Under the pieces are notes generated by a model that saw only the letters and a list, made by a program, of their open reading frames with translations, did not search any database and was not told where the DNA came from. Positions 7,407 through 12,116 of a stretch of DNA of 36,138 nt are shown here, in pieces. The first letter of the stretch is position 1; each line of letters starts with the position of its first letter. Source of the stretch: Candidatus Aenigmatarchaeota archaeon (lineage in GTDB: Archaea > Aenigmatarchaeota > Aenigmatarchaeia > Aenigmatarchaeales > JACQIB01); the NCBI GenBank assembly GCA_038999215.1, contig JAWABM010000006.1:1-36138 (forward strand), in the 5' to 3' direction. The translations under genes and the position numbers were made by a program.

Positions 7407-7710
7407 GGTGTGCTGGACATAGCCCGTCTTCTGTGGGGCGAATCAGCGCCGCGAACGGCGCGTCCTTTGCATCGCCCGGCAACATCTGTCTTAGCTGCCT
7501 ACCCGCCCCTCTTTCCTCATCAGGGCCTACTTGGCATTGCACCGCGCCGGCATTGCCGTGAGAAACCATTACGCTCCTCTTCGGCTGCCCTGACCTCTCG
7601 GCCATGCCACTTGGTGGCGGCGCCTTTGACGGTGGACGGAACTTCCTCGAACCCTTTTCAGCGAAAAGCGTTCACGGAAAAGGATCCGGCGGTTGCCTGC
7701 CCAGCTCACC
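7407..7710 (-). ncRNA. rnpB: RNase P RNA
   Basis: The sense strand has CR-I GAGGAAGTTCCGTCC and CR-V ACAGAAGACGGGCTAT (P4). P1 is GGTGAGCTGGGCA/TGTCCAGCACACC and P2 is GGCAAC/GTTGCC; P3, P15/16 and an extended P19 are also present. TATA-like TTTTAAAA lies about 25 nt upstream. Confidence 0.93.
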
Positions 7711-8207: not shown

Positions 8208-8244
8208 TGCCGTCGCAGGAGCGCGCTTTTAAGGAGGTCTAAAC
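8208..8244 (-). other. 3' arm of the pre-23S BHB processing stem
   Basis: GTTTAGACCT-CCTT-AAA-AGCGC-GC-TCCTGCGACGGCA pairs with the 5' arm at 11677-11713. Confidence 0.9.
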
Positions 8245-8521
8245 AAAAGGCCGTTGGGCGCAGTGGGCTGAAATGGTCGCCGAAGCTTCCATCTTACACC
8301 CCTGCTCCATCAAACAGGTCGTCTAGCCTGTGGCCAATTGCCTATTTTTCCCGAACGCTTCAACCTTAGATGCCTTCAGGCTTTAGCGTCTATGGCGTAG
8401 CTATCCGGCGTTACCGCAAGATAACCGGTGTACCAGAGGCCACGAGGGGGCGTTCCTTTCGTACTTGCCCCTTCTTCGGGTCAGGCAAATGCACCTTCAG
8501 CAGATATAAACCGTACTGTCT

Positions 8522-8917
8522 TTGTCGTTCGGTGTGGGCCGCGCTATCACAATTAAATTGTGCGAGACAATCTTGAGGGCTCATCAGCTACTCTTGTTTC
8601 GGCACGTAGCCATTGGGGCGGTCCAGTCATTGCCCGGACTGCCTCGCAAAAAACCTATTCCATACCCTGGTATACCGCAGTCATCGATATGGCTACCAAA
8701 CTCTGAAAGTTTCGGTCACAGCCGGAGCTAACGCTCGGTCTATGCGGTTCATCTTAGGGATATGGAAAGCAGGATCGGTGGTGACTTCATTTATCATCCG
8801 CACGCATCAACCGCTGTCGCAGTCTGCTTTCACCTGCGCGCGTCTAGCTATCGAAATAACCCATCCTCATTCCCTGCTTGAAAGACCCGTTGAATCATGC
8901 GCATCCCACTACCAAAT
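8522..8917 (-). other. archaeal BHB intron 1 in 23S rRNA (396 nt, after the G2597 equivalent), no ORF
   Basis: The 4-bp helix GTCG/CGAC carries TGA and AAA bulges, and the intron stem is TTTGGT-A-GTGGG/CCCAC-ACCGAA. Cutting after the 2nd bulge nucleotide restores CGTCGTGAGACAG. Confidence 0.92.
8767..8879 (-). ncRNA. intron-encoded box C/D guide module with three K-turns
   Basis: The 8-bp terminal stem is AAGCAGGG/TCCTGCTT. Box pairs are C ATGAGGA/D CCGA, D' TAGA/C' ATGATAA and inner GTGAAAG/TTGA. Guides match 9211-9220 and 9007-9015. Confidence 0.72.
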
Positions 8918-9081
8918 CACGACGTACTGAACCCAGCTAATGTCCCCCTTTAATCAGTGAACACCTGCACCCTTGGCTACAGCTGCGCAGCCAGGAGGGG
9001 GGAAGCCGACAGCGAGGTAGCAACGCGCGGGGTCGATAGGAGCTCTCGCCCGCCACGACTCGGTTATCCCCGGGGTAGCTT

Positions 9082-9207
9082 AATCAGGTTACGGGCACCG
9101 AATGCGGGCAGAGGCCGTCTTCCCGACAATTGCAACTCGTCATGGCTATCGCCACAACTGATTCCAAAATTAAAGACCGCGTCTCTGCCCGCCCGATATC
9201 CGAAACT
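9082..9207 (-). other. archaeal BHB intron 2 in 23S rRNA (126 nt, after the A2433 equivalent)
   Basis: The helix TCAG/CTGA carries AAA and TTA bulges, and the long intron hairpin includes a perfect GCGGGCAGAG/CTCTGCCCGC. Splicing restores TCAGAAAAGCTACC. Confidence 0.93.
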
Positions 9208-11676
9208 TTCTGAAGTCACCGGCATCCATCAAGGACAGACTGGTGTATCGCTAGCCCACGCTTTCGCGGCTGGATCCTTTACTTTGAAGGGTCCAGTCAG
9301 GCTTCCTTTTGCGCTTACACTCTACTCCCGATTTCTGACCGGGATGAGGAAACCTTTGGGCACCCTTGATCTTCTGTCAAGGGTGTACCGCCCCAGCCAA
9401 GCTGTCCACCAACCGGTGTCCCCCCGAGTTGAGGGTTAGCCATATGTTCACAAAATGGCAGTGTTACATTGTCGCCTATCCGATGCCCAAAAGCATCGGC
9501 ATGACGGCTCCTGCCTACGCTATGAAGCCGCAAACATACAGCAACGACAGGCTACAGCAGAGCTCCACGGGGTCTTCTCTTCCCTCTGAAGGTCTGTGGC
9601 CTATTCACCACAATAGCAGGTTCGCCGGGTTCCAACCCGGGACAGCGAGGATGTCGTTAACCCCTTCATGCAGGCCGACAATTAATCGGCAAGGGATTAC
9701 GCTACCTTAAGACGGTCAGAGTTACCGCCGCCGTTTACGGGGGCTTGGCCCGGTTGAGACCGGGTTTAACACACCCGCACTGGGCAGGACTCACTGACTA
9801 TACTCAGGATTTCTCCTTAGCAGTCAGCTATGTTTTTGTTAAACAGTCGCATCCTCCTTGTCACTGAGACCTACCTGATCGCCAGGTAGGCAAGGGTTCT
9901 ACCGAAGATACCCCTCTAATTTGCCGAGTTCCCTGGATTGGTGTCTCCCGTGACGCCGACGCCTTCTCAGCAAGAGTCACCTGTGTCGGTTCTTGATACG
10001 ATCGCGCCCAATCCGACAGGCCTCATTTTCATGGGCTCCCGGAATCGCCCGAACCCCGGTATACACCAGGGCTGTTATCGCCTTCGCCCGGTTCTCTCCT
10101 TGACGGAACTTCCCGGGATTGAACGGTTAACTTGCGTCGGACTATCCTGAAGCGTCTGAGGCCTGCCTTGCGTTGCCGCGTGTATGGCCGCGGTGCAGGA
10201 ATATTAACCTGCTTCCCTTTCCCGTCCGTCAGTTAAGGGGACGGTTAGGATCGACTAACTCCCGGTTGATAGACATTGCCGGGAAACTCTTGCTCTTCTG
10301 GCGGTTAGGATTCCAACCTAACTTTGCTGCTACTAACAGCAGGATTCTCATTCCCGCGCGGTCCACGCCTGCTTGCGCAGACGCTTCCGCCCGCGCGGAA
10401 CGCCTCCCTACGCTATGACTTTCGTCATCTGGGGTCTCGGTGGTGGACTTACTCCCGTCCATCTTCACCGCACTGCTCCTCGATGGGTCCGCTGTTACGC
10501 GTTGATTATCGGGTGGCTGCTTCTGAGCCTACCGTCCCACTGTTTTTGGAGAAGCACCAGCTTTGTGACTTAGCCCACACTTTGGGACCTTAACCCCAGG
10601 CCAGCTTGTTTGCTCTTCGGATACCAAGCTTACCCCGGTACCCTCACTCCCGCCTTCTACGACGCCGACAGATTATGAGTTTGACAGGAACGTCAGAGGT
10701 TTCCCTCCGTATCATCCCAATCAGTGCTTTACCCCATCGGCGGTCTCCAGCGAGGCTGTGCTGAGGCACATTTCGAGAGGAACCAGCTATCACCGCTTTC
10801 GATTGGCTTTTCACCCCTATGCCCAGGTCACCTGGCCGATTAGGATCAGGATCAGTAGCGGGCCTCCACGCGGCTTTCGCCGCGCTTCGCCCTACCCAGG
10901 TATAGATCAAGCGGTTTCTGGTATTATCCCCGTGACTCCCCGCCCTTTCAGACGGCGCCCCTGGTTGCCTGCGGGCATGTCGCTTTCGCTGCGGCTACGC
11001 GCACAGCGCTTAACCTTGCCACGAGAATAAACTCCCTGCCACGTGTTTCGAAACGGAGATCATGACGCTGCAAAGCCCTCCTCCTACACACCCATTTCTG
11101 GACTTTCGTTCGGAAGGCCGCCTTTCACGCCATGACTGACTATCACTGGCTGGTTTCAAGCTCTTTTCATCTTCTATGAAGAATGCTTTTCAGCTTTCTC
11201 TCACGATACTTGTTCGCTATCGGACTCCGGACATATTTAGGGTTGGATGTTGATGCCACCCGTCTTCCCACAGCATATCCGAGCTGAGGTACTCGATTTC
11301 CGCAATCACCTTTCCTCCCTTCCCCTAAGGGGCTATCACCCTCTATGGCACGCCTTTCCAGGCGACTTCGGGTCAGAAGGCGAAGGTGTGCGCGGCTCCC
11401 ACATCTCCCTGCGTTTCCGCAGGGATTCGGTTCGCCCTGCTCCGCTTTCACTCGCCGTTACTAACGGAATCGCATTGCTTTCTCCTCCTCCGCTTATTAA
11501 GATGCTTCATTTCAGCGGGTTCCCTTTCCCCGAAGGGAATGCCGGCCGAAGCCGGCGTGAGGTCACATTGAGCAATCCACGGTTCTAAGGCCGCTTGCGC
11601 CTCGCCGTGGCTTATCGCAGCTTGCTACGACCTTCATCGGTGCCGGAGCCAAGCTATCCACCAGACAGTTTGTGGT

Positions 11677-11713
11677 GTTTAGACCTTTACCTTAGCACTT
11701 TCCTGCAACGGCA
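11677..11713 (-). other. 5' arm of the pre-23S BHB processing stem
   Basis: TGCCGTTGCAGGA-AA-GTGCT-AAGG-TAA-AGGTCTAAAC forms a 4-bp AAGG/CCTT helix between the 3-nt bulges TAA and AAA. Confidence 0.9.
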
Positions 11714-11737: not shown

Positions 11738-11809
11738 GGAAGCTCTAACGACCGTCCTGAAGTCATCACCCTGCGGTTCCTCAGGTGTTCTGCTCTTATC
11801 ACAGCTCCC
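11738..11809 (-). ncRNA. box C/D sRNA in the 23S 5' leader (predicted Cm1920-equivalent guide)
   Basis: Terminal stem GGGAGC/GCTTCC encloses C GTGATAA, D' CTGA, C' GTGATGA and D TAGA. The D guide AGGACGGTCG is complementary to 9709-9718. Confidence 0.78.
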
Positions 11810-12116
11810 TTCTTCTACCCTTCCACCGCCAACGGCATCTGTCGCGGTGTGCATCCTTTGCCGTCCTTTACCCCGTGGGTCGGTCATCGCCTTCCGGCTC
11901 CGCAGACAATACACGGACCAGTCATGCGGCAAGCCATGCTGATGCATGACAATGATAGTTGATTTCGATGGGTTTTGATAAACCCAAAGGAATTTTGACC
12001 CTTTAAGGTCAGAAAAAGCGTCATCTCGTCGCCGATTCAGCCAGGTTTCCAATGAATTCCTAATCGTTGAACATACAAAGCCACCTTTATGGCAAGTATA
12101 TAGTGCCTCCCGAAGG

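Follow-up and report, generated by a model that had tools for sequence, protein, structure and literature searches.

A putative three-guide box C/D RNA in a BHB intron of an aenigmatarchaeal 23S rRNA gene

The window analysed here is a 36,138-nucleotide stretch of a Candidatus Aenigmatarchaeota archaeon (assembly GCA_038999215.1, contig JAWABM010000006.1, positions 1 to 36,138). It carries a stand-alone 23S rRNA gene; the 16S gene lies on a separate contig (C5). The 23S gene is interrupted at the helix 93 loop by an intron with BHB ends, inside which lie several K-turn elements, and further C/D-like RNAs lie in its leader (Table 1). The genome (571 kb, 88% complete) encodes L7Ae, Nop5, fibrillarin, Cbf5 and Nop10, and a genome search returned two PF01974 matches, i.e. 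two subunits of the splicing endonuclease. Other insertions are present. The 126-nt insertion after A2433 is also found in the relative L071, is absent from the same-genus genome G001, and holds a GGUCUU stretch and long stems. An 11-nt match between the intron (8715-8705) and the junction of this second insertion was dismissed as chance because G001 keeps the stretch without having the second intron. Close downstream of the 23S gene lies the archaeal RNase P RNA gene (7408-7709, minus strand), which has a 39-nt insertion near its 3' end. The 16S gene (L001:1501-3448 on G000:C5) has a 45-nt insertion near position 727 and a 5'-proximal insertion with a reading frame, running into a gap of Ns, that we take from its motif to be LAGLIDADG-like.

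Table 1. Features of the 23S rRNA gene, its intron and its leader. Positions are those of the window; 23S and 16S residues carry E. coli-equivalent numbers; a slash within a bulge marks the exon-intron junction.
Feature	Position	Strand	Remarks
Host 23S rRNA gene	8235..11686	-	Rfam RF02540, 2407.8 bits
BHB intron, 396 nt, helix 93 loop	8522..8917	-	between E. coli-equivalent G2597 and A2598
BHB 5' side	8912..8923	-	exon helix GUCG (8923-8920), bulge UG/A, intron stem
BHB 3' side	8521..8532	-	intron stem, helix CGAC (8527-8524), bulge AA/A
Second 23S insertion, 126 nt, after A2433	9082..9207	-	BHB-like ends, read by eye
Unit 1, putative three-K-turn C/D RNA, 113 nt	8767..8879	-	8-bp terminal stem, 8879-8872 with 8774-8767
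Box C variant AUGAGG	8865..8870	-	G-C, G-C with D box CCGA
Box D variant CCGA	8775..8778	-	partner of AUGAGG
Box D' variant UAGA	8843..8846	-	U-A, A-U with C' AUGAUA
Box C' variant AUGAUA	8792..8797	-	partner of UAGA
Shared 8-bp helix and enclosed nested unit	8799..8842	-	strands 8842-8835 and 8806-8799; K-turns 2 and 3
Third box C variant GUGAAA	8828..8833	-	GUGAUA in L071
Third box D variant UUGA	8807..8810	-	UAGA in L071
Predicted D guide	8779..8790	-	10 Watson-Crick pairs with 23S 2421-2430; fifth base on G2424
Predicted D guide target	9211..9220	-	G2424 equivalent at 9217
Putative D' guide slot	8847..8858	-	7 Watson-Crick pairs around 23S U2479; alternative 9 bp with 16S U39
Putative D' slot target	9033..9039	-	U2479 equivalent at 9036
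Putative nested-unit guide	8811..8822	-	9 bp (8 Watson-Crick and 1 GU) around 23S U2504
Putative nested guide target	9007..9015	-	U2504 equivalent at 9011, adjoining the lineage's C2503
Unit 2, conserved K-turn hairpin, H/ACA-like build	8661..8764	-	covarying stems
Unit 3, putative C/D RNA	8578..8634	-	predicted guides to G2251 (8622-8614) and U2438 (8591-8586; D box AUGA 8584-8581)
Putative leader C/D sRNA, UGAUAA/UAGA pair	11738..11809	-	guides, by eye, to U2552 and C1920

Removal of the intron restores the conserved GUCGUG/AGACAG of the host. The junction maps to 2597/2598 in 31/31 introns of this site, and the central helix of the BHB has 4/4 pairs in 33/33 (31 distinct introns and two metagenome loci), with a two-sided change in L057. 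Group I introns follow a U, end in G and have a catalytic core. Such an intron was ruled out by the ends of the element, the exon ending in G and the intron in A, and an Rfam search of the intron with E values up to 10 gave no match beyond one chance hit. Introns of the BHB type are cut by the splicing endonuclease and circularised after excision (PMC7714728; papers are cited here and below from excerpts). The insertion could instead stay in the mature 23S rRNA as an expansion segment with architectural K-turns. No spliced read was seen for this organism, which such a segment would fit; the RNA contigs are those of relatives. In two RNA runs the relatives' contigs gave no cover inside introns, which is uninformative for this organism; one RNA contig of a relative joins the exons and two stop at 8521, a weak hint of splicing. 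The perfect BHB in 33/33 introns argues against retention, as do the location of the site, which is the loop of helix 93 in the peptidyl transferase centre, and a length range of 61-752 nt with LAGLIDADG genes at the same site; we regard an expansion segment as very improbable. Over 8582-9033 the window is matched without a difference by a DNA contig of run X1, possibly the sample of origin. By its sequence, the three-K-turn segment thus sits in a BHB intron of the very 23S rRNA that it would modify.

The segment had been described in a first-pass annotation as a nested C/D design with three non-consensus box pairs, each restoring Watson-Crick pairs next to the GA/GA tandem. All motifs quoted there were located at 8767-8879, on the minus strand only (ATGAGGA at 8870, TTCG at 8855, TAGA at 8846, CGCGCGCA at 8842, GTGAAAG at 8833, TTGA at 8810, TGCGTGCG at 8806, ATGATAA at 8797 and CCGA at 8778). 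A K-turn descriptor (stem of at least 3 pairs, 3-nt bulge, GA.GA, two Watson-Crick pairs) found three K-turns in the segment and no others, all with an 8-bp stem and a 3-nt bulge, and these are the three pairs named earlier: AUGAGG/CCGA (C/D), AUGAUA/UAGA (C'/D') and GUGAAA/UUGA (third). The bulges, the canonical stems and the single 8-bp helix common to two K-turns were likewise confirmed; in a fold of the segment the shared helix has pair probabilities of 0.96-1.0. The K-turn geometry of box C/D sRNAs is present at C/D and C'/D'. Unit 1 departs from the usual build of these RNAs in having three box pairs and 113 nt, against two pairs and 50-70 nt. It contains no consensus RUGAUGA or CUGA box, RUGAUGA is absent from the whole intron, and a scan for RUGAUGA..CUGA gave 47 matches, 0 of them in the intron. 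No Rfam sRNA family scores above its gathering cut-off at unit 1. The expectation that consensus-based finders would miss the element was therefore borne out by both searches.

Dinucleotide shuffling of the segment gave the nested triple in 0/20,000 cases, and 1/28,432 windows of the genome has it, namely unit 1 itself; since the descriptor was written after the element had been seen, these figures show rarity and not function. A chance arrangement in a decaying mobile intron would agree with the outcome of the genome-wide search for compensated C/D pairs that had been proposed as a check. This loose scan, which required a guide of 9 Watson-Crick pairs, yielded 17 matches versus 9-24 in 8 shuffles and so no excess; unit 1 had the longest stem among the 17. 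The 0/20,000 shuffles and the conservation of registers and compensations across genera make chance barely credible.

Two relatives show how the scaffold varies. In L071, a close relative known from a metagenome, all three K-turns are kept with 2 two-sided and 3 one-sided changes, and the shared helix keeps 8/8 pairs through 3 one-sided changes and 1 two-sided change. At its third box pair, A-U is replaced by U-A, in agreement with the compensatory boxes claimed earlier; the terminal stem and the UUCG hairpin each lose one pair. Scaffold changes of this extent between two sequences were reached by 115/500 shuffles and are not significant alone, so that conservation of the three-K-turn scaffold between unit 1 and L071 is suggestive only. 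The L052 intron, which is equal to the one in G001, a genome of the same genus, retains the two outer K-turns and has a 3-nt loop where the third unit would sit; compensation is lacking in its C'/D' pair (C.U, A.A). The third unit would thus be an addition in one sub-lineage, or else was lost in L052; under the first course, a single-domain C/D unit would have been inserted into the D'-C' stem.

The box variants were analysed across 24 introns, two near-duplicates having been dropped, through 53 D-type boxes anchored on recurring guides. Partners were assigned by stem pairing alone for 44/53 D boxes; 9 had no partner, and at least one partner (in L061) is wrong. The positions adjoining GA.GA are Watson-Crick in 65/88 cases, compared with 33.6 when boxes were permuted (0/5,000), a test that overstates significance because kin are not independent. 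The usual combination of U.U and G-C occurs in 0/44 box pairs and CUGA in 1/44 D boxes, and the G2424 unit has four different compensated box pairs among six introns. The first-pass idea of compensated boxes therefore holds lineage-wide as a rule of these introns, as judged from the pairing. It does not hold as a novelty. The archaeal norm at these positions is U.U and G-C (PMC5689011), and a Watson-Crick 3b.3n pair makes K-turn folding protein-dependent (PMC4382518). Divergent K-turns have been reported, together with 3-11% of sRNAs missed by a model (PMC6009581). The AUGAGG/CCGA pair also appears in Methanopyrus kandleri (Mka) sR58, and Iho sR204 has a compensated D'/C' pair (PMC4644070 supplement 1; both pairings read by eye). 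Compensated boxes are thus already present in published sRNAs and are not new in kind. Guide inventories of DPANN archaea would nonetheless be undercounted, because the box pairs here keep pairing and not sequence.

The three target sites of unit 1, read by the N+5 rule, all lie within 80 nt of the 23S rRNA. Random 12-mers reached the match level of the D guide in 3/300 cases, that of the nested 9-bp guide in 44/300 and that of the D' slot (7 Watson-Crick pairs) in 218/300; thus, only the D guide stands alone. Its duplex of 10 Watson-Crick pairs, where 9 or more are asked of such guides, ends by box D with a Watson-Crick pair at N+5 and is the best in 23S and 16S rRNA combined, by 4.8 kcal/mol. 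By pattern, the register is conserved in 6/26 guide-type introns for G2424, 5/26 for U2479 and 2/26 for U2504. Under a relaxed rule from PMC6009581 (distance of at most 100 nt, combined score of at least 32), hand scores were 34 for the D' slot and 37 for the nested slot, each alone at chance level. The whole intron has 7 pairing slots versus 6.2 in shuffles, which is no excess. The D slot very probably guides modification of 23S G2424.

The D' slot had been read as a guide position replaced by a UUCG-capped hairpin, a claim that had to be abandoned. The hairpin has a U-A closing pair, amounts to -0.1 kcal/mol alone and has a pairing probability of 0 in the whole segment. In L071 the hairpin fails to fold, and it is missing from L052, L053 and L056, three introns with the same guide core and an unchanged register; the slot retains this register in 5/26 introns. 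Judged from these features, the slot with UUCG is an eroded guide and not a replacement. That 23S U2479 is what it guides is slightly favoured. The slot pairs better with 16S U39 than with U2479, L071 has only 6 pairs at U2479, and recurrence of U2479 in 3/22 introns is within the null; the L052 target is split by further insertions and was left out of scoring.

External comparison adds to all three assignments. PMC4644070 predicts guides for alignment positions G2698, U2753, U2778, U2712 and G2520. With its offset of 274, which is given for 2556 and 2606 and was extended here and checked on guide sequences, the first four become 2424, 2479, 2504 and 2438; the paper itself equates 2520 with G2251. 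Its supplement 1 lists Mma sR103 and Mka sR126 at G2424, Tte sR50 (apparently the same as TtesR150) at U2479 and Iho sR204 at U2504, all as predictions and not as mapped methyl groups. The Iho sR204 guide reads CGACAUCGG then AGGA, versus CGACAGCGG then UUGA in the nested unit; the two have one difference in nine bases, which matches the lineage's C2503. As a separate observation, two guides of Sulfolobus acidocaldarius sR103 fit 2479 and 2504 by eye in the same registers, for which the table in PMC4644070, as excerpted, predicts none. Among the relatives, several vary at 2496-2501 and 2552 is G in L044, L051 and L061, which is unusual for the peptidyl transferase centre. The equivalent of E. 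coli A2503 (window 9012, minus strand) is C in all 23 sequences readable there; to our knowledge, A2503 is near-universal.

The nested slot probably guides U2504. Alternatively, unit 1 could be a C/D RNA with two guides or one, whose third K-turn is structural, binds L7Ae alone and is capped by a hairpin, the U2504 match being chance. The loop does fold as CUGC-GACA-GCGG with a probability of 1.0, a 4-bp hairpin of -4.1, and in L051, L053 and L061 the D'-C' stem ends in tetraloop hairpins of a similar kind. The U2504 duplex ranks second in energy (-15.8 vs -16.3 near 1993), and 9-bp matches are as common among random guides as stated above. The nested unit is present in two sequences only, unit 1 and L071; a pattern search of 6 family genomes (80-92% complete) did not find the nested U2504 guide. 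Against a structural K-turn, the nested C-to-D spacing of 23 falls within the 22-26 of single-domain units in the same introns, and the 12-nt slot is identical in L071 while its 5' spacer differs. A near-identical guide in the same register is found in Iho sR204 with the same predicted site, and the U2504 target lies at most 80 nt from the D target. A purely structural third K-turn is therefore unlikely in our view. We favour the reading of unit 1 as a three-guide box C/D RNA, housed in a BHB intron and aimed at its own 23S rRNA, as the probable one.

Archaeal C/D particles assemble stepwise from L7Ae, Nop5 and fibrillarin and follow the N+5 rule (PMC7994747). On a three-guide RNA, L7Ae would bind each of the three K-turns and Nop5-fibrillarin would join at each, giving three RNP heads on one RNA. 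The riboses of G2424, U2504 and probably U2479 would then be 2'-O-methylated, either before excision, in the precursor, or by the excised intron circle acting in trans. Another possibility is that the RNA acts as a chaperone without catalysis: its slots would pair with domain V and hold it open during assembly, and its non-consensus boxes would recruit L7Ae alone, with no methyl group added. PMC4644070 proposes a chaperone role for double guides, and such a role would suit both the lack of the usual U.U/G-C stem in all 44 box pairs and the decay of some D' boxes whose antisense stretch is kept, as in the G2251 unit of the window. On the other hand, the duplex-to-box distance is fixed, with the fifth base on known methylation sites (G2251, 2552), and a chaperone would not need such a distance; fibrillarin and Nop5 are, moreover, retained in a 571-kb genome. 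Pure chaperoning seems to us rather unlikely, and somewhat more so than a structural third K-turn.

Unit 1 belongs to a site that is occupied throughout the relatives examined. Of 40 relatives searched, 27 gave a match; the site was readable in 23 and not visible in 4 loci. The intron at 2597 is present in 23/23 of the relatives with a readable site. A contig scan with a pattern for the interrupted site returned 30 loci, labelled Aenigmatarchaeota (18), Nanoarchaeota (2), Micrarchaeota (1) or simply archaea (9). Together with the window these make 31 distinct introns of 61-752 nt, among which 24 have K-turn units, 4 have ORFs and 3 are short. The four of the long, ORF-bearing type (722-752 nt; L032, L038, L058 and L060) include 2/2 tested that match LAGLIDADG_3; the L060 frame is split in two pieces.

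The guides recur and are exchanged. Among 22 introns, the same base recurs as a target 11 times for U2438, 5 for G2424, 4 for G2251 and 3 each for U2479, 2552 and A2600, compared with a maximum of 2-3 in 200 shuffled sets. By pattern, 21 of the 26 guide-type introns have the G2251 guide and 23 the U2438 guide, L054 being a false match. Guide and target change together at 2437 in L042, L043 and L047 and at 2550 in L051 and L061. Genera differ in the units they carry, and the guide for U2552 is intronic in L059 and part of the 23S leader in the window. The intron is, by this comparison, a modular guide cassette with swappable C/D units. The largest guide-type intron (L056, 642 nt) has at least five guides in nested units, with C2426 and G2424 guides in one RNA. 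In L033, L035, L041, L044, L045, L052 and L072, further insertions around 23S 2478-2483 interrupt the U2479 target, and domain V of these genes is crowded with introns.

Several known systems resemble parts of this arrangement. The pre-tRNA-Trp intron of Haloferax and Pyrococcus (sR50) likewise carries a C/D guide within a BHB intron aimed at its host RNA, and is circularised after excision (PMC7994747, PMC7714728); according to PMC7994747, its guide has been shown to act in trans. Here, by contrast, the host is a 23S rRNA, there are several units, and unit 1 would have three box pairs and guides with non-consensus boxes. Archaeal double-guide sRNAs (PMC4644070, PMC6009581) share the N+5 geometry, predicted target sites, linked targets within 100 nt and mobile guide modules; Neq sR14 even has a guide for U2438, as in unit 3 (PMC4644070). 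They are 50-70 nt long, lie outside rRNA genes and have two box pairs, usually with a K-loop, whereas C'/D' of unit 1 forms a full K-turn whose stem bears the third unit. The minimal single-domain guide of PMC6770171, with one C and one D box, one antisense element and a terminal stem, has the layout of the third unit and of several stand-alone units in the relatives' introns. That guide is an engineered Drosophila RNA with a consensus K-turn that works in Xenopus oocytes, unlike the third unit, which is natural, archaeal and nested. U4 snRNA-type K-turns also have a Watson-Crick 3b.3n pair and depend on the L7Ae family for folding (PMC4382518); the U4 K-turn is no methylation guide, in contrast to the proposed role of unit 1. 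Finally, BHB rRNA introns with LAGLIDADG genes in Desulfurococcus, Staphylothermus and Pyrobaculum have the same BHB ends (PMC3608112, PMC6125680); the window intron holds guide RNAs in place of the gene.

New here would be a nested unit with three guides, a cassette at 2597 found across the order, with endonuclease versions at the same site, and box compensation throughout the lineage. The excerpt of PMC7994747 names only tRNA introns as hosts of C/D guides, that of PMC3608112 treats it as open whether rRNA introns give noncoding RNAs, and that of PMC6125680 covers group I introns at other sites. In the openly licensed PMC and bioRxiv literature, as far as its excerpts go, neither C/D guides in archaeal rRNA introns nor a three-guide archaeal C/D RNA was found; a literature search for nested scaRNA precedents in eukaryotes gave nothing usable. 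If the proposed role is true, a 0.6-Mb genome would have a selective reason for retaining an intron in the catalytic centre of its ribosome, and the open question about functional noncoding RNAs from archaeal rRNA introns would be answered. A natural C/D RNA could then bear three guides on three K-turns, contrary to the two-domain model. More tentatively, a homing-endonuclease BHB intron of helix 93 may have been domesticated across an entire DPANN order into a polycistronic guide host, comparable to the snoRNA host introns of eukaryotes and released as a circle with exchangeable C/D, and perhaps H/ACA, units. In this lineage, a three-headed RNP would grip three domain V sites simultaneously and couple the splicing of the peptidyl transferase centre with its folding and methylation, with a Nop5 tolerant of any Watson-Crick stem II. 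This wider scenario is possible, with the balance somewhat against it.

The nested design of the first-pass reading has stood; that reading had missed the BHB intron around the segment, the targets in rRNA, the guide in the loop of the third K-turn and the other units of the intron. Unit 2 shows two-sided changes at 12/19 consensus pairs in 15 hand-picked sequences, and its build recalls SL2 of Haloferax volcanii sR-h45 (PMC7075261). The strands of its loop could pair with the region of helices 69-71 but also with each other. Archaeal H/ACA RNAs have an open pocket around a target U and an ACA box at about 15 nt; by this measure the pocket strands of unit 2 gave no clean framing of one target U. 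Hairpins of this type occur in most introns of the order; in the window, L052 and L071, unit 2 has, in addition, a hairpin in which 8 nt are complementary to the loop of helix 69. The D' box of unit 3 has decayed in the window. Hammerhead-like CUGAUGA/GAAA words near 8590 have no stem I by eye, and the stretch is unit 3. A stretch at 8563-8571 (minus strand) is antisense to the spliced helix 93 junction and has no D box in the window. The junction-antisense stretch is shared by the window, L035, L041, L042, L043 and L072, and is a full single-domain A2600 unit in some relatives; the target of that unit exists only once the host intron has been removed. A further single-domain unit, in G001, is directed across the splice junction of helix 93. 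A GGUCUU stretch close to the 5' end of the intron (8882-8888, minus strand) is found by pattern in 13/26 introns; it is complementary to positions 2059-2065 of 23S, is not followed by a box and is possibly an extra pairing element.

The UGAUAA/UAGA variant that had been reported to recur in a leader sRNA is indeed present upstream of the 23S gene, at 11801 and 11747. G001 keeps both guides of this leader sRNA (L074) in register with different boxes, and of 41 other genomes in the order, 1 has the leader DNA. The leader holds a second C/D-like RNA (11858-11932, minus strand), which has compensated boxes AUGACU/AGGA and a D guide with 9 Watson-Crick pairs to C2064.
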